Of a DNA stretch of 64,000 bases, positions 33,743 through 63,514 are shown one piece after another. The stretch is taken from positions 475,984 to 539,983 of the forward strand of contig CAYNRJ010000001.1 in the NCBI GenBank assembly GCA_964399865.1. Reading direction: 5' to 3'. Position 1 is the first letter of the stretch. Each line of letters opens with the position of its first letter. Position numbers and translations under genes: made by a program. The DNA is from an uncultured Candidatus Saccharibacteria bacterium (GTDB lineage Bacteria > Patescibacteriota > Minisyncoccia > Phycocordibacterales > UBA2100). The notes under the pieces are model-generated. The model worked only from the letters and a program-made list of their open reading frames with translations, made no database searches and was not told where the DNA came from.

Positions 33743-33847
33743 TCCTCTAAGTATGCCATGTCGCACAACATAGATTGTCCCGACACATGTCTGTGTCGGA
33801 AAATCTGACGATATTGTGCAACATATACGTCGCACAATATCGACTCC

Positions 33848-43629: not shown

Positions 43630-44772
43630 TTAGAATGGGTTTCGAGGACCGTTACGTATTTCGAAGTGGACGTGGGGACCCGTGGTCTTTCCGGTAAGAC
43701 CTACGTAGGCGATCACCTCGCCTTTAGCAACAGATTGTCCTACTGACACGACTACACTTGAAGCGTGTGCATAGAGGGTCTGGCTACCGTTGCTGTGACG
43801 AATTACAACATATGCACCATAACCACCGTTCCAACCTGAGTTACGAGCTACGATGACATCGCCATCGGCGGAAGCGAGAATTGGCGTACCGATAGGAGCA
43901 GCGAGGTCAACACCGTTGTATCCATGGATACCCTGAGTGCGGACACCACCGGAGAGAGGGCGCATGTAATAGCCGGCAGATATTGAACTGTTTACGCTTC
44001 CTCCTCCAGAGACTGAGGTTGAGCGTGGAGCAACGGCAACCTTTACTTCGCCGTCCGGAATGATTATTTGAAGCCCCACAGCGAGAGCTGATTCATCAGA
44101 AAGACCGTTGAAACTCGCGATTTCCTGAGCATCACCGCTAAAGTTCTTCGCAATTGATGCAAGAGTATCGTTCTTCTTAACGATGTATTTAACCCCTGTT
44201 ACAGGGAGAATTGTTAGGGTTTGACCAACGCGGATAGTGTCTCGAACTGGGATGTCGTTCGCCCAACGGATGGTGTTTGCGGATACTCCAAACATCTGGG
44301 CAATACCGGAAATCGTGTCTCCCTCTCGTACCACATAGATACTGATAGTGGAGTTTTTAGCTTTCTCGATGTCGGCCATGGTGCCTGATGGGCCTTCTTC
44401 GGGTACAAGAGCTGAATTGTCTACGATTGTGATCTCTCCACCACCTCGAGCTGGAGTTGGGGATATGTTCATCGCGGGTCGCAGAAGCGCCATCGTTTGC
44501 ACGTTGCCGGAGGCCGCCGAATGAAGCTCGCCGCCCTTATTACCCTTGATTGTAGCCACAATACCGCCAAAAAGACTGGCCCGCGTGGTCGCGGGCATAA
44601 AGGTTCCAGCTATAAGAATGAGGGAAACGAGCACTACGAAATAGGTACGCAAGTTTCCCGCAATTGCGGAATTTCGGGGTTTCTTTGTCGTTCTATAGGA
44701 GCTTGCCGGGCTCGGATAGAAGTCTTGTGGGATGTTTTCGATAAGCCATTTAGGCCTTCCTCCATAGCTCAC
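43630..44772 (-). CDS. LysM-domain M23-family peptidase (cell-wall hydrolase/activator)
   Basis: N-terminal TM; two LysM repeats ('YVVREGDTISGIAQMFGVSANTIRWAND', 'YIVKKNDTLASIAKNF'); C-terminal M23 domain with 'HVHFEIR'. Confidence 0.8.
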   Translation of the reverse strand: MSYGGRPKWLIENIPQDFYPSPASSYRTTKKPRNSAIAGNLRTYFVVLVSLILIAGTFMPATTRASLFGGIVATIKGNKGGELHSAASGNVQTMALLRPAMNISPTPARGGGEITIVDNSALVPEEGPSGTMADIEKAKNSTISIYVVREGDTISGIAQMFGVSANTIRWANDIPVRDTIRVGQTLTILPVTGVKYIVKKNDTLASIAKNFSGDAQEIASFNGLSDESALAVGLQIIIPDGEVKVAVAPRSTSVSGGGSVNSSISAGYYMRPLSGGVRTQGIHGYNGVDLAAPIGTPILASADGDVIVARNSGWNGGYGAYVVIRHSNGSQTLYAHASSVVVSVGQSVAKGEVIAYVGLTGKTTGPHVHFEIRNGPRNPF

Positions 44773-47655: not shown

Positions 47656-47845
47656 ATGTTGCTTTCTACGTCACAAATAATTTCTATTTGTTACTTCGAA
47701 GCCACCGTCACTAAGCATTTTGTTCGCGCTACACGCTCCAAAATACTAAGTGCGCCGGCCCGACCTCAGGATTTTGCTCATCTAATGAGCAAAATATCCT
47801 TCCGGTTCAGTAGCGCATATCGCAGAGTACGCAGGTACTCTGCGA

Positions 47846-48184
47846 TTATTTACTACTGCCCATCATTGTAATGATCGTGCCCGAGTACGTGATGATAGGA
47901 CGAACACTAAAGAAGCAGTAATACGGAGCGCCCGATAGGCCGAGCACCCACTGCCCAGCGTGACGCGGCGGACCGTACTCATATGTTTTTGTTCTCACGG
48001 TCCACACATACGCGCCGCCCCGTGGCGGTCCCAAGCGAGCGTAAATGGTTGAGTTATGAATACAGGGAAGTACAATCCTTGCCTGGCCCCCGACGGGAAA
48101 CGCGTGAGTAATATAGGGGATTGCAGAAAAAATAATGGTGAATGCGACGATACATGTCCGCAAGCGGAGTGACATATTGCGCAT
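47846..48184 (-). CDS. Doubtful small ORF (possible small secreted protein) in a 580-bp region with raised GC and palindromes
   Basis: 112 aa with an N-terminal hydrophobic stretch; overlapped by other small ORFs on both strands; no motif. May be non-coding. Confidence 0.2.
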   Translation of the reverse strand: MRNMSLRLRTCIVAFTIIFSAIPYITHAFPVGGQARIVLPCIHNSTIYARLGPPRGGAYVWTVRTKTYEYGPPRHAGQWVLGLSGAPYYCFFSVRPIITYSGTIITMMGSSK

Positions 48185-48234: not shown

Positions 48235-49125
48235 ATGAAATTACTTCGTGCTCATTTCATTCTTTTTCTCATTGGAGTTACCGCACTACTCCTTGTGATC
48301 GGTGCGTTCGCACTAAAAGAATATTCGCCAGCTCAAAATACACCTAGGACAATCGCATGGGGAGGCCTTGGAGGCACCCCGTATTATCCACTTTCGGGCG
48401 AAAGAGCGATCGAAAGTAATCCTGCAGAGGAGAATATCTACAGCTCAATTCAAAGCGGGCCGCCGTTCTATTATTCAACGACTAACTCGGAAGCGGCGGA
48501 TGAGGAAGATGACACGTTCGACGTCGACGCGTTTCTTGCATATCTCAAGGGAGAAACGAGGACATCAGAAACTGCGGTCGAGGAGGAAAAACCGCTTTCG
48601 TTTCTTGAGAATCCATACTCATTTATCACAAATGGGGTCTCCTTCCCGAGTAGCTCCCTTACGAAAGAACGCACACCAATACAGCAGGCTTTATATGAGT
48701 ACGGAAATAAGGCTGGAAAGATCATTCAGACATTTGAAGACTCGAATCAAAACATGGCTGATGTAGTGCAGGCACAATCTGAAGATCCGGAAGACCCTCT
48801 TAAGGTCGCTGCCCTTATAAAACTAGCGGACTCTCTAGCAGATGTAGGGGTTTCACTAGAAGAACTCTCCTCTGTTCCAGCAGAAGCGGCCAATCAGAAC
48901 GCCAAACTTGCGACAAGCTATAAAGATATGGGTGCAAAACTTGCGCTCGTGCCTAACGCCATGACCGAAGACAGTAGGGTAGAGACAATGCTTACCTATA
49001 ATGCTGCCGCCGAATCGTTCGTCACAAATTACGTGGCTATCGTCACTCTTTTCTCGATCATGGAGGTCACATTTTCTCCTGATGAGCCGGGTAGTGTGTT
49101 CACTTTCACGATGACAGGGTTTTAA
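48235..49125 (+). CDS. Bitopic membrane protein (N-terminal TM plus ~260-aa extracytoplasmic domain); first gene of the T4SS-like operon, possibly VirB8-like
   Basis: 'MKLLRAHFILFLIGVTALLLVIGAFALK' TM anchor; the architecture (short N-terminus, 1 TM, ~230-260 aa domain) matches VirB8-type proteins, but no sequence signature was recognised. Confidence 0.5.
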   Translation: MKLLRAHFILFLIGVTALLLVIGAFALKEYSPAQNTPRTIAWGGLGGTPYYPLSGERAIESNPAEENIYSSIQSGPPFYYSTTNSEAADEEDDTFDVDAFLAYLKGETRTSETAVEEEKPLSFLENPYSFITNGVSFPSSSLTKERTPIQQALYEYGNKAGKIIQTFEDSNQNMADVVQAQSEDPEDPLKVAALIKLADSLADVGVSLEELSSVPAEAANQNAKLATSYKDMGAKLALVPNAMTEDSRVETMLTYNAAAESFVTNYVAIVTLFSIMEVTFSPDEPGSVFTFTMTGF

Positions 49126-49185
49126 GCCTCGACTGTCCACTCATTGTCCCCACGAAATCCCCAGGAAGCGGTTATACTTTATGCA

Positions 49186-50001
49186 ATGAAAGTAAGCGCG
49201 TTGAAGGGCGTGAGTTTTTCGCGTATGGCGATAACTGCAACACTGTCGATCGCAGCTGTTATTGGAGTTTCTGCGTGGCAACTAACAGCCCCTCTCCGGA
49301 GCGGGGGTGAAGAACTCGCTACCGGGAGTAACGATTCCACTATCACGATGGGTCGGACTGGAGATCCGGATCGTCAGTTTGATTGGCAGAAAAGTCTTGA
49401 GGGAATCTCGTCCGACGATCCAGATGGACTTTCAAATATCGGTGAAAATGTTGTTGAAACTTTGGTTGGTTCATACGTCGCGCTAAAAGACGCGGGAGTG
49501 TATACGCCAGAACAAGGGGCACAAATAGCTGGTGTAATTGCAACAGATCTCAAGGCCGATATTTCATTCCGTCTCTATGACACTGACGACATTAAGACCG
49601 ACACAAGCACTTCTTTCACTCGTTCGCTCGCATATCGAAGCGATATGCGCATCGCCCTCGAGCCTCTTTTGGAAAATCCTACGTATGAACTCGAGATACT
49701 CGGAGGATATATGGAGACTAAGGACCCAAAGTATCTCGCTGAACTGGAGAACATGGTCCGAAATTACAATGTTGCTATCGAGAATGCCGCACAAGTAGTC
49801 GTTCCGAAAGACGCGATCACATACCATATCAGTGTTCTGAACGCACTCTCTGAATTCGGCGCGACACTCGCACAAATGGTTAAGCACATTGACGATCCCT
49901 TCGCTTCTGCGGCGCTCCTTCGGACATTCAATGGCGCAGAGGCAAAAATGTTTACTTCGTTTGATGAGCTCGCAGACTATTTCCGTAAATCTACCTCATG
50001 A
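49186..50001 (+). CDS. Bitopic membrane protein, distant paralog-like of the upstream gene
   Basis: ORF 49144..50001 trimmed to MKVSALKG; TM 'MAITATLSIAAVIGVSAW'; same architecture as the 48235 gene. Confidence 0.5.
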   Translation: MKVSALKGVSFSRMAITATLSIAAVIGVSAWQLTAPLRSGGEELATGSNDSTITMGRTGDPDRQFDWQKSLEGISSDDPDGLSNIGENVVETLVGSYVALKDAGVYTPEQGAQIAGVIATDLKADISFRLYDTDDIKTDTSTSFTRSLAYRSDMRIALEPLLENPTYELEILGGYMETKDPKYLAELENMVRNYNVAIENAAQVVVPKDAITYHISVLNALSEFGATLAQMVKHIDDPFASAALLRTFNGAEAKMFTSFDELADYFRKSTS

Positions 50002-51593
50002 AAACAAGCTCCCTCATTTTCATACCGTTTAAGTTTGCTATCGCAACAATTACTCTGTTTCTCTTACTGACCTCTTTCGCTCAAGCTCAAACAGATACCT
50101 CAACCACCACTGCAGGATTATCGAGCTCAGGTATATTCGACTGCAACAGTAAAGCCGGAGCTGAGGCGATGAGCAGTGTCGGAACAAAAAGCACGATTCA
50201 AAGCTTATATGTCCCAGTTTCTGACGCAGGAGTAACCTTAAACACCGGATCTTTGGTCTACAAGGAATGTGTTCTCGACCCTATAAACACGCGCATGCGA
50301 GAGAACGCTGCTTTCTCGCACGTTCAACTCGGCATAAAGGCGTTTAACAAGGGGGCTGATGGTGAACCAATGTTTATAAAAGATTACATCGCGAAAGTTT
50401 CGGAGCGCAGCGACAAAACATTCCTACGTACATTTGAAGAAGGGGAGCTTGATACACTCAATCCAGCCTTTAAGGATGAAGTTAAGCGCGCGATCGCTGA
50501 AGATTATAAAACTCAGACCCGTGAGCCGAACAAGGTACTAGAATGTTCGTACAAAGGCGATCTCGCAAAAGTATACGCAGGACAACCGGAAGATATTTGG
50601 GGAGCTATCATGGCCATTGCAGAGCCAGCATGTAATCCGGTTGGAGCTTACAATCTCGCGCAAGAATATATTATAGACAATATCGCATCAGATAAGGAAG
50701 AGATGCTCTTCCGCCTTAATAACAGCAACGCCATCAAAGATGTCCAAACATACAACGAGGAGACCGGGCGATACGAGACCCTCACTCCAGGTATCATCGT
50801 TGCTGAAAATGTTCAGCAACTTATAACATCCGGCTTCCGGCAACTTGAGAACGCCGACGAGATAGGTCAAATGGTTGATGCGCTATATTCTGGCCTCTCC
50901 ACACAAGTAGTTTCCGATACTCGAGGACTCGCGGGAGTAACCGAAGGATTCGCTGGCCAGCCTTCTTATCTCGACCAAATTGGTGACACGCTCCGCAAAA
51001 ACCTTCGCGATGCAGCGGTTAATATAGCTTTGGGAATTCTAAAAGGCGCGAAGCAAACCGAGATTACCTATTTCAATGCATTGAATTCGATTGCACTTAC
51101 CCTAACGGCAACGATAGGGGATCTTCGCCAGGCAGAAGCACTATGTTGGGCAGAAGTAGTACCAAAAGCTCAAGTCTATGCAAGTGCAAATAATATTCAA
51201 ATAACCGTTGCTACTTCAACCCAATTTTCACAAGCGGTTATCAATGCACAGATAACATCTCTCGCTTCAACAACGATAACGGATATACGAAAGAGTGAGA
51301 CCGCTCTCTCCCTCATAGATCATTTAATAGAGGGCATTACGAACACGACTTCTCCGGATGCCCAGCGTGTAGCTCTTCAACAGTTAGATTCTCTCGTGGC
51401 ACAAGGAGCCCTACACGGAGAATACGATGCCCAGCAGGCAGTGAAGCGAAGAGATGAGATAAAGCCGGCAATGGAAAATCTCGTGGAAGATACGGTTGTA
51501 GCATGGGCTGATTCTGCTGACGTAAATGTCGGCTGGTGTAACGTCAATAATCCTGCGGTCGCCCAAAAATGGGTCGAGGAGTGGAGAAACTGA
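49998..51593 (+). CDS. Secreted protein (signal peptide), unknown function, T4SS-like operon
   Basis: 'MKTSSLIFIPFKFAIATITLFLLLTSFAQA' signal peptide; 531 aa; 4-nt overlap with the upstream gene. Confidence 0.55.
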   Translation: MKTSSLIFIPFKFAIATITLFLLLTSFAQAQTDTSTTTAGLSSSGIFDCNSKAGAEAMSSVGTKSTIQSLYVPVSDAGVTLNTGSLVYKECVLDPINTRMRENAAFSHVQLGIKAFNKGADGEPMFIKDYIAKVSERSDKTFLRTFEEGELDTLNPAFKDEVKRAIAEDYKTQTREPNKVLECSYKGDLAKVYAGQPEDIWGAIMAIAEPACNPVGAYNLAQEYIIDNIASDKEEMLFRLNNSNAIKDVQTYNEETGRYETLTPGIIVAENVQQLITSGFRQLENADEIGQMVDALYSGLSTQVVSDTRGLAGVTEGFAGQPSYLDQIGDTLRKNLRDAAVNIALGILKGAKQTEITYFNALNSIALTLTATIGDLRQAEALCWAEVVPKAQVYASANNIQITVATSTQFSQAVINAQITSLASTTITDIRKSETALSLIDHLIEGITNTTSPDAQRVALQQLDSLVAQGALHGEYDAQQAVKRRDEIKPAMENLVEDTVVAWADSADVNVGWCNVNNPAVAQKWVEEWRN

Positions 51594-51601
51594 TCTTGCA
51601 T

Positions 51602-54142
51602 ATGGAATACCTAAAACGAATGCTAGGACATCATAAAATAGGAATACTTGCGTCACTCTTCATCGCAATCGTGTTCTCCCCCTTTGTATTCAGTAATAAC
51701 AGCTTCGAGGTAAGCAGCGCGCTGGCAGCAACTCCTGAGGAAATCGCCGCAAGCGAAGGATTTCAAGCAATAATGGCAAACGTTCCGGCAGAAAATCTTG
51801 CCGCCTTCAACGGGTGCTTACAAAACCCTCCAAGTGGTCCATCGATCAATGAAAAACCTAAAGAGGGGCTCGCACTTTTTGCGAGCTATTGTTATGACCT
51901 CACTGTGGGCGAGCTACCTGACGAGTTAGTGCCGGGTTTTAAGCCACCCGAAGGCTATGTGGGCGGATGTGGCCTCAACTTTGGTTGTTATTGGAAAAAA
52001 CTCGTTGCAACCATTGCTTGGATACCGTCTGGACCAAGCGCATGGCTCCTTACTACTGTAGGGCAGTTCTTCAATTACCTCGTCGATCATACTATTATTG
52101 ACTTCAAGGGGACCTTAGAACAAATGGGGGAGAGTATTGATAATGCATGGACTGCATTCCGAGATATTGCGAACATTGTCATCATCGGAATGTTTGTATT
52201 CATTGCTCTCTCTCTAATCCTCGGGCTCAAGGAATACGGCGAGCGGAAAATGATAGCGCGCGTACTCATTGTTGCGGTGTTAATCAACTTCAGCTTACTT
52301 TTCACAAAGTTAATTATCGACGCTTCACACTTTACTGCGTATCAGTTCTACAATGCAGCTGGGAATATTGGTGGCCCCGTTGCCGACGAGGCCAGAGCTG
52401 CGGTTGACATTGAAGACGAAACAATTCCTGCGGCGGAGCCAGGTATCGCAGGTCAATTCTTAGCTGCTATGAGTATTACCCGGGTTGGGGAGATACATAA
52501 CATACTTTTTCAGATGCAGCAGAATGGTAATGGGATGTGGAACACAATACTCTTTGGCTTTTTTATGGGCGTTATGTTTCTCCTTGCTGCACTTGTGCTC
52601 TTATACGGCTGTTTCTTACTGATTGCACGGGGGCTACTCTTAGTATTTCTGATGATGACGGCACCTCTTGCTTTCGCGAGTTGGCTCATCCCCAAATTCG
52701 CAGGAGATGGTTGGAGCAAATGGTGGGATTCACTCTTACGCACTGCGATATTTGCACCTCTTCTGATGATTTTCTTGTGGGCTTCTCTCACTATAGCGAC
52801 TCAAATCAACGAGGCAGGCGAGGGACTGGGAGCGCTGATCGATCATCCTGAAAACGGCATCGGTATCGGGGCTCTTTTCAACTATGTCTTCGTGCTTGGG
52901 TTGCTTTTCATGTCCATAAAACTTGCAAGCAAATTCTCCGGCACAATTGCAGGATTCAGCGTCGCTGCAATGGCTACTGCCGCACCAATCACTCTCGGAT
53001 CGCGAGCGCTCGCAGCTCCACTCCGCGGTATCGGAGGTAAATATGCAACCAAATATCAAGAAAGTCGTATGGATCAAGCAAAGGCCGCTAGAAGGAACGT
53101 CGGGGTCGCTACTGGACTTAGAACGAACGCGTTGAAAGCTGCGCACGATTTCCGAGAAGCTGGTCTGCATGGCTTTGCAGATAGGGAACAGGCGGAGGCT
53201 AAGAAACAACAAAAGATTGCGGAGGAACAGAAGAAAATTGCGGCAATCAAAACAAAACGCGCGATGCGAGGTGCGACAGTTGCCGGGAACAAGATGAATC
53301 TTATGAATACTGAGACCGCTAAGAAGGTGCTCGGGGCAGTGGGGGTTACAGGGTTCATGGCTGGAGCGACGCCAAAGGAAGTACAGAGTTATCACGGAAA
53401 AATTGAAGAGAGAGCCAAGGCGGCGGAGAAAATTGCATCAAAACTTGCTCCAAAGCAAGAAGAAATCGATAAAGCGCGGGATCTTGCGGGAGACAGAATG
53501 AAAGAACAGCGCAAAATTGAAGAGGCACAACTGGAGGCAACAAGAAGGGTGGCTGAGGAGGAGGCCAATAACACAAAGGCTCTTGAGTATTTGCCTGAGC
53601 AATTGGAAACTGCCATTCGAGAATCTACACGAGTTAAGGCAGACGCTGCACGAAATAAGACTGCGATCGATGCCAGTAGGAGGGCAGGCACTATAAGCGC
53701 AGATGAACATCAACGACAATTAAGGATCGAGAATGATCGTGTTAAAGCCGCAGACGCCGCCGTAAAAACTGTTAAAGATCGCATTGACGTTATCGATCAG
53801 CCCGTGAAAGATATTGCAAAAAATATCGAAAAGTTCCGTGGAGAAACAAAAGGTGCAATCGAGAAAGCCAAACATGAAGGGGGTCAGGCTGTTGTAGAGA
53901 GCGGAGCCGGGGTAGCCGAAGTAATCGGTCGACGGTACGGAGGTACTCTGACTCGTATAGCTGGAGCCCTTACTGGAGCCAATGCTCACGTCGCTCACGA
54001 AACGAGAGAAATGTACCTTAAGAATCGCGGTGCGATGAATAAATTAAAGGATATTCTTAAGGGTGCAGGTGTTACGGAGGGAGAAGCTGCGCATGGAGGG
54101 GGCTCAGCACCTGCAGGGGGCGGGGGAGGCGATCATCACTAA
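51602..54142 (+). CDS. Polytopic membrane protein, VirB6/TrbL-like, with a long Lys/Ala/Glu-rich coiled-coil C-terminal tail
   Basis: ORF 51569..54142 (start 51569 or 51602); at least 8 hydrophobic helices in residues ~200-480; an extracytoplasmic Cys-containing loop (GGCGLNFGCYWKK); C-terminal ~350 aa of KAA/EEQ coiled-coil ending GGGSAPAGGGGGDHH. Sits two genes upstream of the VirB3-like + VirB4 pair, as in Gram-positive T4SS. Confidence 0.55.
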   Translation: MEYLKRMLGHHKIGILASLFIAIVFSPFVFSNNSFEVSSALAATPEEIAASEGFQAIMANVPAENLAAFNGCLQNPPSGPSINEKPKEGLALFASYCYDLTVGELPDELVPGFKPPEGYVGGCGLNFGCYWKKLVATIAWIPSGPSAWLLTTVGQFFNYLVDHTIIDFKGTLEQMGESIDNAWTAFRDIANIVIIGMFVFIALSLILGLKEYGERKMIARVLIVAVLINFSLLFTKLIIDASHFTAYQFYNAAGNIGGPVADEARAAVDIEDETIPAAEPGIAGQFLAAMSITRVGEIHNILFQMQQNGNGMWNTILFGFFMGVMFLLAALVLLYGCFLLIARGLLLVFLMMTAPLAFASWLIPKFAGDGWSKWWDSLLRTAIFAPLLMIFLWASLTIATQINEAGEGLGALIDHPENGIGIGALFNYVFVLGLLFMSIKLASKFSGTIAGFSVAAMATAAPITLGSRALAAPLRGIGGKYATKYQESRMDQAKAARRNVGVATGLRTNALKAAHDFREAGLHGFADREQAEAKKQQKIAEEQKKIAAIKTKRAMRGATVAGNKMNLMNTETAKKVLGAVGVTGFMAGATPKEVQSYHGKIEERAKAAEKIASKLAPKQEEIDKARDLAGDRMKEQRKIEEAQLEATRRVAEEEANNTKALEYLPEQLETAIRESTRVKADAARNKTAIDASRRAGTISADEHQRQLRIENDRVKAADAAVKTVKDRIDVIDQPVKDIAKNIEKFRGETKGAIEKAKHEGGQAVVESGAGVAEVIGRRYGGTLTRIAGALTGANAHVAHETREMYLKNRGAMNKLKDILKGAGVTEGEAAHGGGSAPAGGGGGDHH

Positions 54143-54147
54143 TAGGT

Positions 54148-54723
54148 ATGGATACAAAAATGACTCAAGAAGAATTAAATCAGAAATTGCGCGAGCGATT
54201 TCAAGAGATTCCTAAAGTACTCCAAGAGGCTATTACCTCTGCAAACGTAGAGAAACAGTTACGAGAACTCGCCACAAAACATAAGTTGCATGTGGACATG
54301 TGGCAATTACTCGAGAATGAGGTCATCGTTACACTCCTCGGTCTTCAGCCAGCAGATGACCTCGCCGCCAACCTCCAAAACGACCTCGGCCTACCCAAAG
54401 AAGCATCGATTGCGCTCGCAAGAGATGTATCTACGATAGTTTTCGCGCCAGTAAGACAAGAGCTCGAGCGGACACTGGAACATCCTGAGGCAAAGTCCGA
54501 AGAGGAGAGTGACGTTGATACCGTAAGGACACAAATACTTGAGCAAAAGCCTACACCAACTAGTACTTCACTGCCTCCGTTGGTAAAACCAGCGACCCCA
54601 CCCCCACAACCACCCACTCAAAAGATTGAAAGAGGTCCTGCGTCGGGCGCATATGTGCCCGGAGAAGTATCGAGCGCGCGAAAATCGATCGTGGATGATC
54701 CGTACAGAGAAGCGCCGCAATGA
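54148..54723 (+). CDS. Hypothetical protein with a Pro-rich C-terminal region, T4SS-like operon
   Basis: 191 aa; no TM; 'PPLVKPATPPPQPPTQ'. Confidence 0.45.
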   Translation: MDTKMTQEELNQKLRERFQEIPKVLQEAITSANVEKQLRELATKHKLHVDMWQLLENEVIVTLLGLQPADDLAANLQNDLGLPKEASIALARDVSTIVFAPVRQELERTLEHPEAKSEEESDVDTVRTQILEQKPTPTSTSLPPLVKPATPPPQPPTQKIERGPASGAYVPGEVSSARKSIVDDPYREAPQ

Positions 54724-54852
54724 AAAACTAATTTAATTCACTCTGGCGTCAATACGCTAAGAGCTTGCGTGTTATAATTCTGCCACGGGAGACTGGAAAC
54801 TAGCGCTCGTTTTCTCCTCGAAGCTAGCTGCTAGTCCCTGGCAGCTATTTAT

Positions 54853-55353
54853 ATGCAATTTCAGGTACCACAATTCATCGAGGTGGAGGATAAAATCTTC
54901 GGTCCTCTCACATTCAAGCAATTTGTGTATGTCGCAGGAGGAGCCGGGGCAGCCTATCTTTTTTGGCGAACCCTCCCATTCTTTTTTTCCGTCCCCCTCA
55001 TCATGGGGATTGGAGCCCTTGCCGCAAGCTTAGCCTTCTTTAAATACAACGGGCGCCCTTTTATTCTCGCGATGGAGCATGGCTTCTACTATCTTGTACG
55101 AACAAAACTATATTTGTGGAACAACGCGGCAAAAACTGCAAAACCTAGGAAATTAGCGACGAAAGCGACACTACCTACTAGTCAGGTATATGTGCCTACA
55201 CTTTCACAAAGCAAATTACACGAACTGGCATGGAGTTTGGACATTAAAGAACGTATTGCAGGAGGCACCGTTTCAAGCGAAGAGCGAGAAGCGGCCGCCC
55301 CGACAGATAGCATCGTCGCTCCAATACGCACCGCCCGCGATGCGAGAGTATAA
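54853..55353 (+). CDS. Small two-TM protein, VirB3/PrgI-like (directly precedes the VirB4 homolog)
   Basis: 166 aa; 'FKQFVYVAGGAGAAYLFWRTLPFFFSVPLIMGIGALAASLAFF' hairpin of two helices; position and topology as for VirB3-family proteins. Confidence 0.5.
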   Translation: MQFQVPQFIEVEDKIFGPLTFKQFVYVAGGAGAAYLFWRTLPFFFSVPLIMGIGALAASLAFFKYNGRPFILAMEHGFYYLVRTKLYLWNNAAKTAKPRKLATKATLPTSQVYVPTLSQSKLHELAWSLDIKERIAGGTVSSEEREAAAPTDSIVAPIRTARDARV

Positions 55354-55358
55354 AATCT

Positions 55359-56045
55359 ATGCCACCAGGACTTGAAAACTTACGCGACAGAAAGAAATCC
55401 ACTCAAGATTTCGTGCCCGTGCGTGAAGTGCGGGATGGAGTCGTCGTACTTAAGGATGGAGGATTACGCGCAATTCTTCTCGCATCTTCTCTTAACTTCG
55501 CACTGAAATCAGAAGACGAACAGACTGCGTTCATCACGCAATTCCAAAGCCTTCTAAACTCACTGGATTTTTCTGTGCAGATTTTCATAGAGTCTCGCAT
55601 GCTCGATATAAGACCTTACATTGCAACTCTCGAGGAAGCATATAAAAAGCAGCTCGACGATCTGATGCGAATCCAGATCCGTGAATATATAGAATTCATC
55701 AAGAGCTTTACTGAAGCTGCAAATGTCATGACAAAGAACTTCTTCGTCGTCGTGCCGTATTCCGGCGGTCCACAGATCGGCAAGAGTGGGGGAGGGCCCT
55801 CACTCCCATGGAGCAAAAAAAAGAACAGCACTGAGGAGGCGAACAAGAGCTTCGAAGAGCAGGTGACTCAGCTCGAACAAAGAGTATCTGTCGTGCAGCA
55901 AGGTCTGATCCGCACAGGTGTCCGCACTGTTCAGTTAGGAACCGAGGAGGCAATCGAGCTTCTCTACAAAATGTTCAACCCTGGCGAAGAAGGGAAACCG
56001 ATGTCACTTAACAATACCGAAGAGGCGCCCGCGACCAGCCAATAA
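55359..56045 (+). CDS. VirB4/TraC/TrsE-family protein, N-terminal portion (ends at an in-frame TAA)
   Basis: 'QDFVPVREVRDGVVVLKDGGLRAILLASSLNFALKSEDEQ' matches the conserved N-terminal region of VirB4/TrsE-type ATPases; the ORF stops at TAA 56043-56045 and the next ORF starts 3 nt later in the same frame. Confidence 0.65.
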   Translation: MPPGLENLRDRKKSTQDFVPVREVRDGVVVLKDGGLRAILLASSLNFALKSEDEQTAFITQFQSLLNSLDFSVQIFIESRMLDIRPYIATLEEAYKKQLDDLMRIQIREYIEFIKSFTEAANVMTKNFFVVVPYSGGPQIGKSGGGPSLPWSKKKNSTEEANKSFEEQVTQLEQRVSVVQQGLIRTGVRTVQLGTEEAIELLYKMFNPGEEGKPMSLNNTEEAPATSQ

Positions 56046-56048
56046 TGT

Positions 56049-57998
56049 ATGGGATTTAAAGACTTACTGCCATTTGGAAAGAAACCAACGCCGCCCGAGG
56101 CGCGAGTTCTTCCTGTGTTACCTGAGGAAATATACGAAACGGGAGTTCTTGACCTCCAGGATGTCATCGCACCGCACGCACTCCGTGTTAATTCACGTGA
56201 GCTCGACCTCGGCGAGAAGATCGCGCGAACTTTTTTCGTGATCTCTTACCCCCGCTTCCTCACGACAGGATGGTTCGCCCCGATCATCAACATGGACAAG
56301 GTCTTGGATATTGCCATCTACGTCCACCCGATGGACACAAATGAGATGCTTCGAAAGTTCCAGAAAAAAGTGGCTGAGGTGCAGAGTCAGATATCGACAC
56401 GTGAAGAGAAGGGGATGGTGCGAGACCCTATGCTCGATACTGCATACAGCGACTTGGAAACTTTGCGTGACTCTCTGCAGCAGGCACAGGAGCGTATTTT
56501 CGAAGTGGGATTGTACTTAACAATTTACGGTAATACCCGCGAGGAAATCGATAAGGTGGAATCTGAGGTGCGTTCAATTCTCGAATCGCGTCTCGTATAC
56601 ATTCGTCCTGCACTATTCCAACAGGAGAGTGGGTTCAGAAGTGTCTTGCCGCTCGCTACCGATGAGCTTGATGTCCATACAAAACTCAACTCCGCTCCTC
56701 TCTCTTCGATCTTTCCATTCATATCATTCGACCTTACGAGCGATCGCGGCATCCTCTATGGCGTCAACCGCCACAATTCTTCTCTCATTCTCTTCGATCG
56801 TTTCTCGATGGAAAACTACAACTCGGTCACCTTCGCAAAATCCGGTGCCGGCAAGTCGTACATGACCAAGCTCGAGATATTGCGATCTCTCATGTTCGAA
56901 ACCGAGGTTATCGTAATCGACCCAGAACGCGAGTACGAATATCTCGCAGAAACAGTGGGCGGGCGATACTTCAACATCTCACTCTCCTCTGAGCACCACA
57001 TAAATCCATTCGATCTTCCTGTCCCTCGCGAGGATGAAAACCCATCAGATATTTTGCGCAGTAACATCATTACTCTCGTAGGACTTTTCCGCATTATGCT
57101 CGGGGGCCTTACGCCTGAAGAAGATGCGATCATTGATAAAGCCATAACCGAAACCTACGCATTGAAAGACATCACACCGGACGCGAACTTTGCCGCAATA
57201 GAGCCACCGCTTCTCTCTGACTTTGAACTGGTACTTTCCGGACTAGAAGGATCGGAGTCGCTCGTCGCTCGTCTTTCTAAATATACGAAAGGAACTTGGT
57301 CGGGATTCATGAATAGACCAACGAACGTCGACATGAATAAGAGATTGATTGTTTTCTCGGTCCGCGACATGGAGGATGACTTGAAACCAATTGCGATGTA
57401 CATCATCACACATCACATTTGGAATGCGGTTAGGAAAGAATTGCGTAAACGTCTTCTCGTCATCGATGAGGCGTGGTGGATGATGCGTTCAGAAGATACC
57501 GCATCATTTCTCTATTCCGTTGCTAAACGAGGACGTAAATACTATCTCGGAATTTCAACCATTACCCAAGACGTATCCGACTTCCTCAATTCGCCGTATG
57601 GAGTTCCGATGATAACTAACTCTTCTATCCAAATACTTCTACGCCAATCTCCGACATCCGTTGACCTCGTGCAATCAACATTTAAATTATCCGATGAGGA
57701 AAAATACCTCCTGCTTGAATCCGATGTGGGGGAGGGAATATTCTTTGCGGGCCTTAAACACGTAGCGGTAAAAGTTATCGCATCATACACAGAAGATCAA
57801 ATCATCACGTCCGATCCATCTCAGGTTCTCGCGATCAGGAAAGCTAAGAGGGATCTTGAAGATGCAAATTCAGGTGAAGCACCCCCGCTTCCAGAGGTCA
57901 AAAAAATCCCTGAAATGCCGGATCGCCCAGTTGCGCCCCAAACCCCAGCCGTTCCACCCGCACCAAACATCGCGCCACCCAAAGACATGGCAATATGA
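56049..57998 (+). CDS. VirB4/TraC/TrsE-family T4SS ATPase, central and ATPase portion
   Basis: 649 aa; Walker A 'TFAKSGAGKSYMTKLEI', Walker B 'RLLVIDEAWWMM', 'GISTITQDVSDF' helicase-like motif; in frame with and contiguous to the 55359 ORF, the two together being about 877 aa (typical VirB4 length). Confidence 0.75.
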   Translation: MGFKDLLPFGKKPTPPEARVLPVLPEEIYETGVLDLQDVIAPHALRVNSRELDLGEKIARTFFVISYPRFLTTGWFAPIINMDKVLDIAIYVHPMDTNEMLRKFQKKVAEVQSQISTREEKGMVRDPMLDTAYSDLETLRDSLQQAQERIFEVGLYLTIYGNTREEIDKVESEVRSILESRLVYIRPALFQQESGFRSVLPLATDELDVHTKLNSAPLSSIFPFISFDLTSDRGILYGVNRHNSSLILFDRFSMENYNSVTFAKSGAGKSYMTKLEILRSLMFETEVIVIDPEREYEYLAETVGGRYFNISLSSEHHINPFDLPVPREDENPSDILRSNIITLVGLFRIMLGGLTPEEDAIIDKAITETYALKDITPDANFAAIEPPLLSDFELVLSGLEGSESLVARLSKYTKGTWSGFMNRPTNVDMNKRLIVFSVRDMEDDLKPIAMYIITHHIWNAVRKELRKRLLVIDEAWWMMRSEDTASFLYSVAKRGRKYYLGISTITQDVSDFLNSPYGVPMITNSSIQILLRQSPTSVDLVQSTFKLSDEEKYLLLESDVGEGIFFAGLKHVAVKVIASYTEDQIITSDPSQVLAIRKAKRDLEDANSGEAPPLPEVKKIPEMPDRPVAPQTPAVPPAPNIAPPKDMAI

Positions 57999-59059
57999 AA
58001 AAGGCAGCAGCGCCATTCCTATTTCTTGCGCTTATTTTTTTCTCACTGCTAGTGCCCAGCACTCCTGCCCACGCTCAATTAGTGTTCCCCGGGACAACAC
58101 CAGATCTCGCTCTTGAAGCAGTGCCCGAAAACCCTCGACCGAATTCAAACATTACTCTTCGGATAAGAAGTGTGCTGCTCGACCTCACCCAAAGCGAGAT
58201 CACGTGGTACGTGAATGGCACTGTTACAAGTACTGGTATTGGGATTACTGAAACTAGCGTAGCAACGGGAGCGCTGGGAACAGAGACCCGGGTGCGTGTT
58301 GAAGCAATTGGAGAAGCAGGGAGCGCTTTTGCCGTTGGGGTATTTCGTCCTACTGACATAGATCTTCTGTGGGAGGCTGATTCGTATGTGCCCCCATTTT
58401 ATCGAGGTCGCGCGCTTCCATCTGCGGGAAGTACCGTTCGCTTATTTGCGGTACCTCGATTTACGAGAGTCGGATCTACTTCCTTTTTACCATCGAGTGA
58501 ACTCATGTATACCTGGAAAAGGAACGATCAAACTATTCCAAAGGCATCTGGCTTCGGAAAAGACACGGTCCAAATTGAAACGTCCATTATATCGAGCGGC
58601 GACGTTATATCCGTAGAAATAGCAACCGCAGACGGGATACTGGAAGGATCTGCTTCGGTACGGTTACCTTCGGTAGAACCTTCTCTCGTGTTATACGAAA
58701 ATCATCCAGTCTTCGGGGTTCTGTATCACCGTGGATTGCAGAGCCCTGCCTCAGTCACTGAGTCCGAAACAACATTTATAGCTGTTCCGTATTTCGCGCC
58801 TACTCGAAATCCTGATAACGGGTCACTCATTTATAAATGGCGGGTTGGTAACTCATCTATACCAAGCAGTTTTACGAAACCTAGCGCAATCACAATCAAC
58901 GCAGAGGGAACAAATGGTGTAGCTCTCATACAGCTCGCCGTTACACACGCGTCGAATTTCTTACTGAACATACAGAACGCATGGGCCGTGACTCTCGCTG
59001 GAACAGACACATCAACCACTGTGAGTCCTTTCACGGACCCTTTCACAAGTGGTGAATAA
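57995..59059 (+). CDS. Secreted beta-rich protein (signal peptide, Ig-like repeats), T4SS-like operon
   Basis: 'MKKAAAPFLFLALIFFSLLVPSTPAHA' signal peptide; 4-nt overlap with the VirB4 stop. Confidence 0.55.
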   Translation: MKKAAAPFLFLALIFFSLLVPSTPAHAQLVFPGTTPDLALEAVPENPRPNSNITLRIRSVLLDLTQSEITWYVNGTVTSTGIGITETSVATGALGTETRVRVEAIGEAGSAFAVGVFRPTDIDLLWEADSYVPPFYRGRALPSAGSTVRLFAVPRFTRVGSTSFLPSSELMYTWKRNDQTIPKASGFGKDTVQIETSIISSGDVISVEIATADGILEGSASVRLPSVEPSLVLYENHPVFGVLYHRGLQSPASVTESETTFIAVPYFAPTRNPDNGSLIYKWRVGNSSIPSSFTKPSAITINAEGTNGVALIQLAVTHASNFLLNIQNAWAVTLAGTDTSTTVSPFTDPFTSGE

Positions 59060-60317
59060 TACTATGCGTATACGTATACCGACATCACTCCTCCGTTACA
59101 CTCTGATACTTCTTGTTGTTTTACTATTTGGCATCCTCTTGTGGTGGTATTTCTTCCTCGGAGCCAAACAGGATTCACTGGAAGCGACTGATGACGGAAG
59201 GGGAGCAGGAGTAGAGGCGCCTTCTTTCGGAAATGCGATCGGGAGCACGTACGGCAATATTGTTTCAAGCATAGGAGCGGCCATATCAAACACGAGCGAG
59301 GAAGAGCCTGCCGCTCCACAAACAACCCCGCCTTTATGGCATGCGGCGAAAAGCCCTGTGGCAGGCGCAAGCTTTATTTTAAATGGAACTACGACCGCAA
59401 TCCGCTTCGTAGAACGAGGTACGGGATACGTTCTGGAGGCAAATCCTGAAACAGGGGAGCTTACTCGCATCACGAACACCCTCATACCACGCGTATACGA
59501 AGCTTACGTAGGAGCTAATGGAAGTCTTATTTTGCGAAGCCTGGATGAGGCTGACAATATCGTAACGAGTGCCGGACAAATAGTTGCAACAACTTCTGAA
59601 GATGTCGCACCAAAGCCCCTAGCTTTGCGTCAATTACCCTTAAACATTCGTACGATCGCTCTGCACCCCGAAGGAGAAGAGGTTTTTTATATTGAACCCG
59701 GATACTCTGTGGAAGACGAGTATTCCATTGTTCGGGCCGCATGGAACGGCACCGCGGTTAAACGTATCGGTACGGTGGGTATTTCGGGTTGGCAAGCAAA
59801 GTGGCTCTCCGACGATCGAATAATATTGACACAGAATGCAGGCGGCACATCGAATTATGCATATGAATTAGCGGCAAACGGATCACTCGTGCGCCTCGCA
59901 AATCCCGCAGGCGGACTAGTAGTACTACCTCGTCCAAACTCTAAAGCGTTACTCTATGGCAGTGCCTCGAACGGCTTCCTCCTTTCAGTTCTCACAGATG
60001 CAAACGCGGATCCCAAGACACTTTCTATCCGCACCACCGCTGATAAGTGCGTATGGTCGCCTAGCGCTGTTCTAATTGTGTACTGCGCAGTCCCACAAAC
60101 TCTACCAGGAGCAGATTTCCTAACCGCTAGAGCGCAGGGGACAGAACATACTGCCGACACCTGGTGGAAAATCGATATACGAACAGGTAGAGCAGAAATT
60201 TTACCCGTCGAAACTATGCCTCAAGTGGATGTCGAGAATCCTATAATGGATCCGTCTGGGAAATACCTACTATTTACGAACAGTCGCGATAAATCGCTTT
60301 GGTTGGTACGTATCTAA
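59049..60317 (+). CDS. Membrane-anchored protein with a beta-propeller-like (TolB-like) extracytoplasmic domain
   Basis: TM 'LLRYTLILLVVLLFGILLWWYFF'; repeated beta-strand blades ('GTGYVLEANPETGELTRITN', 'GKYLLFTNSRDKSLWLVRI'); the start may be at 59064. Confidence 0.5.
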   Translation: MVNNTMRIRIPTSLLRYTLILLVVLLFGILLWWYFFLGAKQDSLEATDDGRGAGVEAPSFGNAIGSTYGNIVSSIGAAISNTSEEEPAAPQTTPPLWHAAKSPVAGASFILNGTTTAIRFVERGTGYVLEANPETGELTRITNTLIPRVYEAYVGANGSLILRSLDEADNIVTSAGQIVATTSEDVAPKPLALRQLPLNIRTIALHPEGEEVFYIEPGYSVEDEYSIVRAAWNGTAVKRIGTVGISGWQAKWLSDDRIILTQNAGGTSNYAYELAANGSLVRLANPAGGLVVLPRPNSKALLYGSASNGFLLSVLTDANADPKTLSIRTTADKCVWSPSAVLIVYCAVPQTLPGADFLTARAQGTEHTADTWWKIDIRTGRAEILPVETMPQVDVENPIMDPSGKYLLFTNSRDKSLWLVRI

Positions 60318-63300
60318 AGTATATGAGCACGACACTTACTCTGAAGAAAATATTGGTCGGCGGCGCTCTTGTACTACCGTGTCTCATTAGCACGTTCACC
60401 CTCTCCCTTCCTTCTGTCGAGGCAGCGGACATATCTCCTTCGTGTGCTGATCGAGCAGACGGATTCATCCCGCTTGCGTGTGTCGATAATACTGTACTTG
60501 GAGATTTATACGCCACGGGTGATGTTGCGCCCGATGCGGAATTTAGTGGAAATCTTACCGACTACGTTGGAAGAATATTCTTCTTCGCTATCACAATCGG
60601 GGGAGTGCTTGCAGTCCTTCGTGTTGCCTGGGCTGGGTTCTTATACATAACAAGTGATCTGTGGCACACAAAGGAACGCGCGAAAGAGATGCTACGGGAA
60701 ACCGTACTCGGACTCTGTCTTTTGCTTTCAGTCTGGCTTATCTTGAACCAGATCAACCCGCGGATTCTAAGTCTCGACTTTAATTTCACACCGCCTGCGG
60801 AAGATGTCGGGGCAGATGATCCTGATTCACCTGGACCTGCCACTCCACAGCCAACCCAGGCACAGATGCGAGTGATGCAGACCTTGGGGACCTACCGATC
60901 TTCGTGGAACCTCTCACCACTACCAGCTCAGAGTTGCGCCTCTCCAACTTCACTATCGATGGGTAATTACCTTTGTTTCGAAAGCTGGCATCACTGCGAA
61001 GCGGTTGCTGAGGTAGAAGGCGCTAGCTGCACATTTACGCCGACCGCCGAGATCCCAAGCCCATTTTTTGATCCTACCCTCGGACCGAACGGGGGATACT
61101 GGCGCCCAACTATAGTCATTTGGAACGGTGACAGATACCATTCTGAAGAGGATTGTCTTGCGGCTAGACCCCAATACAACGAATGCGAATCTGTCGCATA
61201 TGATGCTCCCATAGGCACATACTACCCGAACGCCGAAACCCCACCTGGCTGGTGTTATTTAGATACATGGTTACCAGATGGCAAATATTGTGACCCTTCG
61301 TGGACTGAAGATGCGTGCCGCGCAGCAGGGAATGCTTACGGCTCAAACATCGGAAGCCGGTGCGATGAGTCTGGCACCGAAAATTCTTATGTTAGTACAT
61401 ACACCGAGATACAAAATGATTCACTAACTTCGGGCGCGCCGCGATATTGCATTCTAGAGTCCGGTGCATACCGCTGCTTCCTTTCCTCAGAGAGCTGTAA
61501 CGAGGCAGGCGATGACTGCTATAGAATCGGGAATTGGGAAGTGAAGCTTAATGGAGTTACGGCCATTCTCGATACGAGAGGTACTGTGAACCGATTTCAG
61601 ACCGCAGCGCTTAGTTGGGAGCCGTCCGTTGGGGCGGATCCGTCTGTAATTGAAGACGCTCGTGAATCTTTTAGAAATTACTGCGAGACTAGGGCAAGCG
61701 CTACGTACGTTGCGGCTGAGGGAAATGAAACCCGTGACTTCTGCCCAGTCTCCATTCCTGGTCCGAATACCGAAAATTTCTACACCTCATGGAATGCGGT
61801 TCCCGAAAACAAGTGGTGCTACAACCCTGTCGGCACTGAATTTTATTGCCCCGGTAACGAAAATGCGTGTATAGCTGCGGTCGCAGAAATTGGATATACA
61901 GACGTTTCCTGTGAATACAAACCTGCGAGATCAACAATAACTCAACCTGGCTTTGTATGCGGACAAGGCGGGCCAAACCAATTCTATTGCGGATTTAAAA
62001 ACGTCGCAGCATGCGCCGCATACGACACTCCACCTCTTTCTAATTGCGCACTAATACCAGAAATTCCTGACCCTACCTACACATACGCGCCGGCAAATCC
62101 AAATCAAACTGATCCGCCACAGACAAATACCCCAGAAGAAGTGGGGGCCGACCCAGCAGTCACCTATGACAGTAACGTTATACATGACACCCCGATTCTC
62201 GGATACACATGCTACCTACTATCAACCTCAAGATACCAATGTTATCGAGGAGGACCGATTGCTAACCCACCACCGCACTCACAGGCATTCAGTCCGGGAC
62301 CGCTGACTGGGTATTACTGCTTCTCGATGAACAACACATCGTCTCCGTATTACAGTTGTTACACGGGAGCGATAACGTGCGCTCAAGCTGCACAAGCAGT
62401 TGGTAAAACATGCGCCCTCGCATCTCTCCTGCGAGAACCAGGTCCGACTTTACAATGGAGTCAATCGCCGCGCTTAGAACAATATTGTTTCGCAGCAAAT
62501 GAGGGCGGATATGGATGTGTCGCAAATGAAGCGGCATGTAACACTTTCGCTGTCAGGGAAGGGAAAACCTGTACCCTTGCGACATTAAGAAATCAAAATG
62601 GTAGTACGGTGAGCACGCCCGCATCACAACCCGGAGTAGGATTACCTCCTCCAACGAGAACGGGGGCTACGTCCGTAATTCCATCGGCGGAAACGCCAAC
62701 CGAAACACTTGATGAATTACCTCCAAAAGACAACGTGTCGTTGTGGGGTCGCGCAATACAACGTCTTTTTGAGCTATGGGAATTACTACGACATCCTTCC
62801 GAATGGACGGCTGAATTCCGACAAATGGTGGAAGGTTTCCTAGGTCGGGAAGAGGAAACAACTATTGAAGCTGAGGTTGTAAATCCTCCAGCGGAGCAAC
62901 CTGTTGCTCAAATATCCACGCCGCCTAACACTCCTGTTGCTCAAACATATCCCTATTTCCAGCTCCCGGCAGGACAGTGGTGTCATAGGGTAGAGGGAAG
63001 TAATCCTCGCGCATATCAATGTTCCGGGGTGCGCGCCGCCTGTGAGGAAGGCGGCCAAACCTGTTTCCGAGCGGATGCGGCATCAACAATCCGTTCCGCA
63101 TCAGGAGGATCCGTGAGCTCTGCGATTGCGGCGGGCGGAGGGTATTGCACCGTACTTACTAGAGGAGTAAGCAACGCGATGTACTGTGGTTTCGCATCTG
63201 CCGAATCCTGTACTGAGTTTGTTCTAAATTCGAGCAGCCAAACTCAGACGACGACATCTTGTGACACTTATTGTCCAGCAGAGCTTCAAGCAGGGGCCGC

Positions 63301-63514
63301 ATCTCAAGGGGCAACGTATCAATGCAATATTACAGTCGGATCCTGGTGTTATGAAATATCGAAACCGACAAGCGCAACAACATTTGGCAGACGATATCAT
63401 TGCGCCGTAAATGAAAATATCTGTAACACTGCTCGCTCAGCGAACAATCCCGCGCCGATCAATAACAGCACCTGTCTTCAGTTTGGACCTTACGGACCTA
63501 CCCTTACGTCTTGA
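60299..63514 (+). CDS. Giant cell-surface protein: N-terminal VirB2/TrbC-like pilin module (signal peptide plus 2 TM helices) fused to a ~900-aa ectodomain made of about 10 cysteine-rich repeat modules
   Basis: Signal peptide '...LPCLISTFTLSLPSVEA'; 'YVGRIFFFAITIGGVLAVLRVAWAGFLYITS...RAKEMLRETVLGLCLLLSVWLILNQI' matches TrbC/VirB2 hairpin topology; repeats of the form [YWF]-x-C-x(7-11)-C-x(4-6)-C-x(7-14)-C (e.g. YLCFESWHHCEAVAEVEGASC, QYCFAANEGGYGCVANEAACNTFAVREGKTC). An alternative start lies at 60323. Confidence 0.6.
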   Translation: MVGTYLKYMSTTLTLKKILVGGALVLPCLISTFTLSLPSVEAADISPSCADRADGFIPLACVDNTVLGDLYATGDVAPDAEFSGNLTDYVGRIFFFAITIGGVLAVLRVAWAGFLYITSDLWHTKERAKEMLRETVLGLCLLLSVWLILNQINPRILSLDFNFTPPAEDVGADDPDSPGPATPQPTQAQMRVMQTLGTYRSSWNLSPLPAQSCASPTSLSMGNYLCFESWHHCEAVAEVEGASCTFTPTAEIPSPFFDPTLGPNGGYWRPTIVIWNGDRYHSEEDCLAARPQYNECESVAYDAPIGTYYPNAETPPGWCYLDTWLPDGKYCDPSWTEDACRAAGNAYGSNIGSRCDESGTENSYVSTYTEIQNDSLTSGAPRYCILESGAYRCFLSSESCNEAGDDCYRIGNWEVKLNGVTAILDTRGTVNRFQTAALSWEPSVGADPSVIEDARESFRNYCETRASATYVAAEGNETRDFCPVSIPGPNTENFYTSWNAVPENKWCYNPVGTEFYCPGNENACIAAVAEIGYTDVSCEYKPARSTITQPGFVCGQGGPNQFYCGFKNVAACAAYDTPPLSNCALIPEIPDPTYTYAPANPNQTDPPQTNTPEEVGADPAVTYDSNVIHDTPILGYTCYLLSTSRYQCYRGGPIANPPPHSQAFSPGPLTGYYCFSMNNTSSPYYSCYTGAITCAQAAQAVGKTCALASLLREPGPTLQWSQSPRLEQYCFAANEGGYGCVANEAACNTFAVREGKTCTLATLRNQNGSTVSTPASQPGVGLPPPTRTGATSVIPSAETPTETLDELPPKDNVSLWGRAIQRLFELWELLRHPSEWTAEFRQMVEGFLGREEETTIEAEVVNPPAEQPVAQISTPPNTPVAQTYPYFQLPAGQWCHRVEGSNPRAYQCSGVRAACEEGGQTCFRADAASTIRSASGGSVSSAIAAGGGYCTVLTRGVSNAMYCGFASAESCTEFVLNSSSQTQTTTSCDTYCPAELQAGAASQGATYQCNITVGSWCYEISKPTSATTFGRRYHCAVNENICNTARSANNPAPINNSTCLQFGPYGPTLTS

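Follow-up and report, generated by a model that had tools for sequence, protein, structure and literature searches.

Within a 64,000-nt stretch of contig CAYNRJ010000001.1 (assembly GCA_964399865.1, uncultured Candidatus Saccharibacteria bacterium), called the window throughout, we analysed a co-directional gene cluster on the + strand at positions 48235–63514. The cluster is likely to represent a chromosomal, vertically inherited type IV secretion system (T4SS) of the Patescibacteria type, which would descend from the MPF_FATA machinery that monoderm bacteria use for conjugation and would serve contact and exchange with a host cell rather than conjugation of the organism's own DNA. Most of the features that mark the Patescibacteria clade of T4SSs were found at the locus, while the VirB6 candidate is weak: a VirB4 of the CD1110 type, an adjacent TrsD, PrgI/VirB3, a pilin of family PF18895, an origin-proximal position and no linked relaxase or type IV coupling protein (T4CP). 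The placement of VirB4 in this clade is based on its score against profile hidden Markov models (HMMs) and on its nearest relatives, which are patescibacterial. An earlier reading of the DNA, made without database searches and called the original prediction here, had proposed a non-conjugative T4SS-like machine of a CPR-type bacterium (CPR, candidate phyla radiation), and both the HMM matches of the components and the lack of a relaxase or T4CP nearby support this proposal.

Core components of the secretion apparatus

The 649-aa protein of the cluster matches the NCBIfam model conju_CD1110 with 358.6 bits (E 6.5e-107, cut-off 325, model positions 185–732) and Pfam P-loop_TraG with an E-value of 1.1e-24. 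A Walker A motif (AKSGAGKS) is located at aa 263 and a Walker B motif (LLVIDEAWW) at aa 469, and both are preserved in all 78 VirB4 orthologues compared. Judged by its sequence the protein is a VirB4-family ATPase of the MPF_FATA-like type with intact catalytic motifs. The preceding 228-aa protein shows similarity to NCBIfam TrsD/TraD (E 6.4e-8), contains PF26593 (TraC-like) and aligns to positions 2–117 of the CD1110 VirB4 model and to positions 99–233 of VirB4_plasma. It is predicted to be a TrsD-like protein, separate from VirB4 but homologous to its N-terminal domain.

The two open reading frames (ORFs) are divided by an in-frame TAA at 56043–56045, and the original prediction had read them as one split VirB4 gene. 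While the two ORFs and the stop codon between them are real, the disruption of a single gene was not borne out. TrsD-like and virB4 are adjacent but separate ORFs in 80 of 80 related loci and lie in different frames in 61 of them, which argues for a fixed TrsD plus VirB4 arrangement, the norm in this clade, instead of a broken gene. Besides Patescibacteria, the pGO1 subclass of Gram-positive systems also has separate genes for TrsD and VirB4 (PMC12102498). A pseudogene, a frameshift and recoding were rejected as explanations on the same counts and on the match of the first ORF to TrsD. It is therefore extremely improbable that the locus is what is left of a decaying integrated conjugative element whose VirB4 was broken by a stop codon. 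Besides the TAA itself, a tyrosine recombinase gene at 32828–33835 could be taken to point that way, but all twelve ORFs of the cluster are intact, the Walker motifs are kept and sequence conservation is high, and the recombinase lies 15 kb away beside mgsA among housekeeping genes. On this context we rejected it as the integrase of an integrative conjugative element; it would rather be an Xer-like enzyme.

Upstream of the ATPase genes the 166-aa product matches Pfam PrgI (E 5.8e-11, 43.2 bits, cut-off 27) and retains 40–68% identity across 76 loci. Its assignment as a small membrane protein of the VirB3/PrgI family follows the HMM. At the 3' end of the cluster aa 85–150 of the 1071-aa protein match Pfam T4SS_pilin (PF18895) with 31.5 bits (cut-off 26.6); elsewhere in the window this HMM has no match. 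A VirB3-like protein, a VirB4-family ATPase and a pilin fusion had all been named in the original prediction from the sequence alone; the HMM searches place VirB3/PrgI, VirB4 and the VirB2-like pilin above their curated cut-offs.

Conservation and genomic setting

One genome per GTDB species was scanned for relatives of VirB4, which were found in more than 584 Patescibacteria GTDB species; the comparison uses the best 80, which are 73–91% identical. These loci come from metagenome-assembled genomes of Kaiser-, Nomura-, Taylor-, Campbell-, Adler- and Wolfebacteria and Paceibacterota; some carry the label Saccharibacteria, a few no more than 'bacterium'. Synteny, to which the original prediction had pointed as a check, is extensive: the order uvrD–ksgA–cluster is retained in about 80 species-level loci of Patescibacteria-type genomes, which indicates that the series of ORFs is not due to chance. 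Of 48 full-length loci, 47 have yidC (- strand) and dnaA (+ strand) after the cluster. The median identity to the proteins of the window is 77% for VirB4, 61% for the TrsD-like protein, 49% for both PrgI and KsgA and 28–42% for the envelope proteins. VirB4 and the TrsD-like protein exceed KsgA in conservation in all 48 of these loci, a comparison biased by the choice of the loci by VirB4 similarity. The high conservation of VirB4 and TrsD suggests a core, vertically inherited machine, unlike a mobile element. The context of a mobile element was not found either, with the same neighbours in about 80 species and a GC content of the cluster (0.47–0.50) equal to that of the rest of the window, without compositional anomaly.

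Upstream of the cluster we found genes for PNPase, ComM, PurA, an M23/LysM peptidase, UvrD/PcrA and KsgA, with ksgA immediately before the first gene. Downstream follow jag, yidC, rnpA, dnaA and dnaN, and according to the gene calls dnaA lies about 1.9 kb past the pilin gene. The lack of a relaxase, VirD4 and VirB11 noted in the original prediction holds over a longer distance: no relaxase, coupling protein (T4CP/VirD4/TcpA) or VirB11 was detected in the 64-kb window or in the adjoining sequence of about 4 kb on the left and 8 kb on the right, which together cover about 76 kb of the roughly 613-kb contig. Pfam scans covered essentially every window ORF of at least 150 aa, and the flanks were covered by gene calls. 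The other window ORFs of this size matched housekeeping and type IV pilus genes only, window ORFs without a Pfam match showed no P-loop, and the about 4 kb to the left of the window consist of housekeeping genes too. An origin of transfer (oriT) cannot be recognised unless the relaxase family is known.

These observations bear on whether the locus is an ordinary conjugative or mobilising T4SS with its coupling protein and relaxase encoded elsewhere in the genome. T4CP genes are often found far from virB4 and VirD4-like genes are present in many Patescibacteria (PMC12102498), and the part of the contig that was scanned would leave room for such partners. We nevertheless consider this very unlikely, since housekeeping genes lie on both sides of the cluster, its synteny does not vary among about 80 species, the composition is not anomalous and VirB4 evolves more slowly than KsgA, unlike the cargo of mobile elements. 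Moreover, of 3,035 Patescibacteria genomes only 103 yielded a relaxase, and in Southlakia the T4CP was non-essential (PMC12102498).

The cluster reads towards the point of divergence between jag-yidC-rnpA and dnaA-dnaN, the expected site of oriC. Inferred from this gene order, transcription of the cluster would meet the replication fork coming from the origin head-on, which would be curious for a conserved and supposedly highly expressed operon.

Gene layout, giant pilin and accessory proteins

Twelve close-set ORFs with a spacing of -19 to +129 nt were counted in the cluster by the ORF scan, eleven of which are itemised with coordinates in Table 1. An independent caller gave the same genes when applied to a public assembly (Logan SRR14271365), whose DNA agrees with the window over 17,952 nt without a difference. 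Positions and strand of the ORFs in the original prediction were recovered by both approaches, as was the co-directional packing, whereas its count of eleven genes has to be raised to twelve because the two ATPase ORFs had been taken as one gene. Its topology calls also match our results: in a simple hydropathy scan, the 296-, 271-, 531-, 354- and 417-aa proteins showed one N-terminal hydrophobic segment each (transmembrane or signal), while the 191-, 228- and 649-aa proteins showed none.

Table 1. Positions of the genes and associated elements of the cluster in the window.
Feature	Position	Strand	Length	Remarks
112-aa ORF, conserved	47846-48184	-	112 aa	N-terminal signal-like segment; divergent from cluster
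296-aa ORF	48235-49125	+	296 aa	
271-aa ORF	49186-50001	+	271 aa	alternative TTG start 49144
531-aa ORF	49998-51593	+	531 aa	
840-aa ORF	51620-54142	+	840 aa	alternative start 51569
191-aa ORF	54148-54723	+	191 aa	
Hairpin	54825-54847	+	10-bp stem	consensus scan; between 191-aa gene and prgI
166-aa ORF (prgI)	54853-55353	+	166 aa	
228-aa ORF	55359-56045	+	228 aa	
649-aa ORF	56049-57998	+	649 aa	
354-aa ORF	57995-59059	+	354 aa	
417-aa ORF	59064-60317	+	417 aa	alternative start 59049
1071-aa ORF	60299-63514	+	1071 aa	pilin part 60299-60775; C-terminal extension 60776-63514

The 1071-aa protein begins with a signal-like segment, followed by transmembrane helices at aa 93–111 and 131–149 in the hydropathy scan. 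Its first part aligns with pilins of 134–200 aa from related loci and is predicted to comprise a signal peptide plus a VirB2-like pilin hairpin; a conserved 'LILNQINP' helix precedes the linkers and modules of the extension. Pilins in 55 related loci are 134–515 aa long. The extension of about 910 aa consists of proline-rich linkers and at least nine four-cysteine modules (nine by a stringent pattern) of the form aromatic-C-x6-16-aromatic-x-C-x4-9-C-x5-24-C, with 52 cysteines in total; tandem repeats at the DNA level were not found in the pilin gene. When the extension was compared by phmmer with 1.84 billion representative sequences, it matched only itself and, weakly, two shorter pilins of the same family, in which we counted about three modules and one module by reading the sequences. 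A word-indexed homologue search with the whole protein retrieved only the protein itself, and the four-cysteine module is carried by only two of the 55 related pilins.

In F- and T-pili the C-terminus of the VirB2-type pilin is extracytoplasmic and faces the outside of the pilus. Taken together with the array of modules, this topology suggests that the extension most likely serves as a binding array that is displayed on the surface and evolves fast. Alternatively, it may be cleaved off, as happens to TrbC/VirB2 pilins at their C-termini. It is possible, but somewhat unlikely as a whole, that three things hold jointly: that the 1071-aa pilin is incorporated intact and represents a new type of T4SS pilus subunit or tip, an "adhesin-pilin" whose disulfide-bonded modules display a rapidly evolving host-recognition array; that Paceibacteria tune their host range by extending or swapping this extension and not by arrays of small pilins as in Saccharibacteria; and that the 531-aa protein is the first component resembling VirB5 in a T4SS of the monoderm type.

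The 531-aa protein is predicted to be secreted, is built from very long helices and contains six cysteines. It is a possible VirB5-like pilus-associated protein; a Foldseek search of its model against the PDB returned nothing significant and did not confirm the similarity to VirB5. The homologues P0092, P0094, P0096, P0105, P0112, P0113, P0130, P0155 and P0158 are 650–716 aa long and carry an extra fibronectin type III domain, an addition consistent with a surface-exposed role.

The first two genes of the cluster encode bitopic proteins. In the 296-aa product a transmembrane segment at aa 9–27 (hydropathy scan) is followed by a linker and a helical ectodomain; matches to it were found neither in Pfam and NCBIfam nor among PDB sequences. 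Its family aligns with that of the 271-aa protein in hhalign (95.7% probability, E 9e-9, 153 columns), and by this alignment the two are paralogues. Both have the N-in topology of the VirB8 family with an N-terminal transmembrane segment and an extracytoplasmic domain. A confident model of the 271-aa protein, however, gives a four-helix-bundle ectodomain after the single N-terminal transmembrane segment, and not the alpha+beta fold of VirB8/NTF2. Of the two proteins of VirB8-like architecture in the original prediction, the bitopic build of the paralogous pair is thus retained and the VirB8/NTF2 fold is not. A VirB6-like polytopic protein had also been proposed. In the hydropathy scan six or more hydrophobic segments were seen in the 840-aa protein, which also has a long charged C-terminal domain, and its polytopic topology is compatible with an extended VirB6. 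Pfam TrbL/VirB6 was matched by three of 23 orthologues (best E 6e-5) and not by the protein of the window itself, and its family profile yielded only coiled-coil noise against the PDB. We regard it as a weak candidate for a VirB6-like protein.

No transmembrane segment was found in the 191-aa protein, predicted to be soluble and cytoplasmic, which combines a conserved N-terminal domain with a variable proline-rich linker and a C-terminal motif. The motif D184-P-Y-R-E188 is invariant in all 32 aligned orthologues and looks like a docking peptide; Pfam and PDB gave no match to this protein. Members of the 354-aa family match BiPBP_C (12 of 45), Ig_3 (five) and PKD-like families, and the profile built from the family matches T4 Hoc in its Ig domains (E 5.9e-4). 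These matches and a signal-like segment agree with the secreted Ig-like protein of the original prediction and would make the product a secreted all-beta protein with about three Ig/PKD-like repeats. The 417-aa product carries a transmembrane segment at aa 14–32 (hydropathy scan) and is probably a membrane-anchored beta-propeller of the TolB/PD40-like type, to judge from a weak match of its profile to TolB propellers (E about 0.02) and from PD40, WD40 and DPPIV_N matches in a few orthologues. Profiles of the 296-, 271-, 531-, 840- and 191-aa and pilin families gave nothing meaningful against PDB sequences. Profile HMMs of the families lacking signatures recover them in most of those of the 80 related loci that reach far enough.

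A further small ORF of 112 aa lies between ksgA and the first T4SS gene. It was left uncalled by the public gene caller and is absent from the original prediction. tblastn matches with 42–68% identity were found at the same place in 19 related loci, and a Pfam family was not assigned. We consider it a candidate accessory gene with a predicted secreted product. The only sizeable gap inside the cluster, 129 nt long and situated upstream of prgI, contains a strong hairpin that may act as an internal terminator or attenuator and would thereby divide the cluster into two transcription units. A second strong hairpin with a 12-bp stem was found 3' of ksgA at 47819–47846 by the consensus scan. An Rfam scan of the window detected four tRNAs and nothing else.

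Other genes of the window also relate to the cell surface or to replication. A type IV pilus cluster at 8118–15120 on the - strand encodes a PilB-type ATPase with T2SSE and MshEN domains (13351–15120), PilC (T2SSF, 11931–13151), a 587-aa protein with a CarboxypepD_reg domain and two adjacent ORFs whose N-termini, read by eye, resemble type IV prepilins. The MshEN domain and the adjacent PilC assign this ATPase, the only other secretion ATPase among the scanned ORFs, to the type IV pilus, and it was rejected as a VirB11. The organism thus combines a type IV pilus with a T4SS, which has been reported for Saccharibacteria too. A gene for an M23 peptidase that carries two LysM domains lies at 43630–44772 on the - strand, 3.5 kb upstream of the cluster; in Paceibacteria VirB1-like hydrolases with M23/LysM domains are associated with virB4 (PMC12102498). 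At 3402–5117 (- strand) lies a gene for a 571-aa protein in which a Kazal-like stretch is combined with PG_binding_1 and two PKD domains, probably another cell-surface protein. The ORF at 5174–6037 (+ strand, 260–287 aa) has a DnaA N-terminal domain as its sole recognisable domain and is distinct from the true dnaA downstream of the window.

Relation to known systems and possible function

The original prediction had called machines of this kind only sketchily described, a view superseded by three publications (PMC12102498, PMC10633639, PMC12857230). In an analysis of 3,035 Patescibacteria genomes VirB4 formed a monophyletic clade inside MPF_FATA (PMC12102498, Quinonero-Coronel 2025 Microb Genom). 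TrsD, PrgI/VirB3, VirB6 and PF18895 pilins were widespread near virB4, VirB8 was hardly ever detected, and T4SSs of Paceibacteria were located near dnaA, dnaN, rnpA and ksgA (PMC12102498). By transposon sequencing a homologous cluster and its pilins were found to be essential for Southlakia epibionticum to grow as an epibiont while comEC was not, and coupling and relaxase proteins were not recognisable in this species (PMC10633639, Wang 2023 Cell). A review describes a pilus-bearing T4SS of the Gram-positive type and speculates on the pilus as a conduit for exchange with the host (PMC12857230). With the kind of system published between 2023 and 2025, the novelty of the present locus is modest and lies in the giant cysteine-rich pilin, the possible VirB5-like secreted protein, the conserved small ORF upstream and the accessory gene set.

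With the Patescibacteria-clade T4SSs (PMC12102498; Southlakia SEML1_0006-0019, PMC10633639) the locus shares the core of an MPF_FATA-descended VirB4, adjacent TrsD, PrgI/VirB3 and a PF18895 pilin, together with a candidate VirB6-like protein, its place in the chromosome beside dnaA/dnaN/rnpA/ksgA as in Paceibacteria, and a cluster without relaxase or T4CP. Saccharimonadia in contrast have arrays of two to 11 small divergent pilins, whereas here a single pilin gene carries the extension of four-cysteine modules. The six accessory proteins (bitopic pair, long-helical, Ig-repeat, propeller-like and DPYRE proteins), which would be clade-specific envelope or soluble components, are not named in these two studies. 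MPF_FATA plasmids (pGO1/pSK41 Trs, pIP501 Tra, pCF10 Prg) have the order TrsC/PrgI (VirB3) – TrsD – TrsE (VirB4) in common with the locus, the separate TrsD for the VirB4 N-domain is as in the pGO1 subclass (PMC12102498), and VirB7/9/10 are absent from both, in keeping with monoderm systems. The plasmid operons, however, also encode a relaxase, a T4CP, VirB8-like NTF2 proteins (TraM, PrgL) and a VirB1-type hydrolase, none of which was found in the cluster; they lack a pilin and are mobile, whereas the locus has a pilin and is fixed in the chromosome. Compared with Gram-negative VirB/D4 systems (A. tumefaciens VirB, pKM101 Tra), it is without the outer-membrane core of VirB7/9/10, VirB11 and VirD4, and its pilin has a huge extension.

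H. pylori ComB and archaeal Ced resemble the locus as VirB4-type ATPase machines without relaxase or coupling protein, and a T4SS run backwards in their manner could import host DNA or polymers to feed an organism unable to make nucleotides. Such an importer would depart from the host-contact system proposed above only in direction and nature of the substrate. We consider it unlikely, although less so than conjugation with distant partners. It is consistent with the failure to find a relaxase or T4CP nearby, import is favoured by the authors of PMC12102498, and the dispensability of comEC for growth of Southlakia leaves room for another uptake route (PMC10633639). VirB4 also has a weak similarity to the NCBIfam model DNA_import_CedB (2.3e-10), but this lies far below its match to conjugative VirB4 and reflects the common ATPase fold, to which the relation with ComB and Ced is limited. 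ComB moreover has the VirB7-10 set of diderms, unlike the locus here. Pfam and NCBIfam recognised no DNA-binding or nuclease component in the cluster, and no experimental evidence for import is known from any Patescibacterium.

For the host-contact system we infer the following mechanism from established T4SS biology, combined with the parts list, the ATPase motifs, the conservation and the context reported here. The genome hosting the machine would be that of a member of the Paceibacteria (Kaiserbacteria-like). VirB4 and TrsD would dock on VirB3/VirB6 at the cytoplasmic membrane, and ATP use by VirB4 would pull pilin from the membrane and build a surface-exposed pilus or conduit spanning the cell wall. 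The extracytoplasmic secreted and anchored proteins would make or anchor its wall-crossing and surface part, and the cysteine-rich C-terminal extension of the pilin would point outward and touch the host cell. The machine would then let the organism attach to a host bacterium and exchange macromolecules with it, by import or export, rather than transfer its own DNA by conjugation.

Several points weigh against this interpretation. We know of no Paceibacteria T4SS that has been studied experimentally, nor of a pilus seen in this group, and the function of the locus is deduced. With its extension of 910 aa the pilin does not fit easily into a canonical VirB2 filament, except after processing or as a minor or tip subunit, and VirB6 support for the window's own 840-aa protein is weak. 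A T4CP or relaxase could be located elsewhere on the contig, as VirD4-like genes are distant from virB4 in many Patescibacteria (PMC12102498).

Few machines are known to be essential to the epibiotic life of these ultra-small bacteria, and the Patescibacteria T4SS is one of them. The locus adds nothing categorically new to this picture, yet it is a clean and complete example from the Paceibacteria, in which the conserved set of 12–13 genes reaches well past the five components recognisable by HMMs and neither bitopic protein turned out to be the missing 'VirB8'. Its pilin with the exceptional, predicted surface-exposed extension is a candidate determinant of host specificity; if the adhesin-pilin proposal were true, host range in Paceibacteria would be set by the C-terminal extension of the pilin. 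The accessory set and the giant pilin represent concrete targets for structural and cryo-electron tomography work on the connection between CPR bacteria and their hosts.

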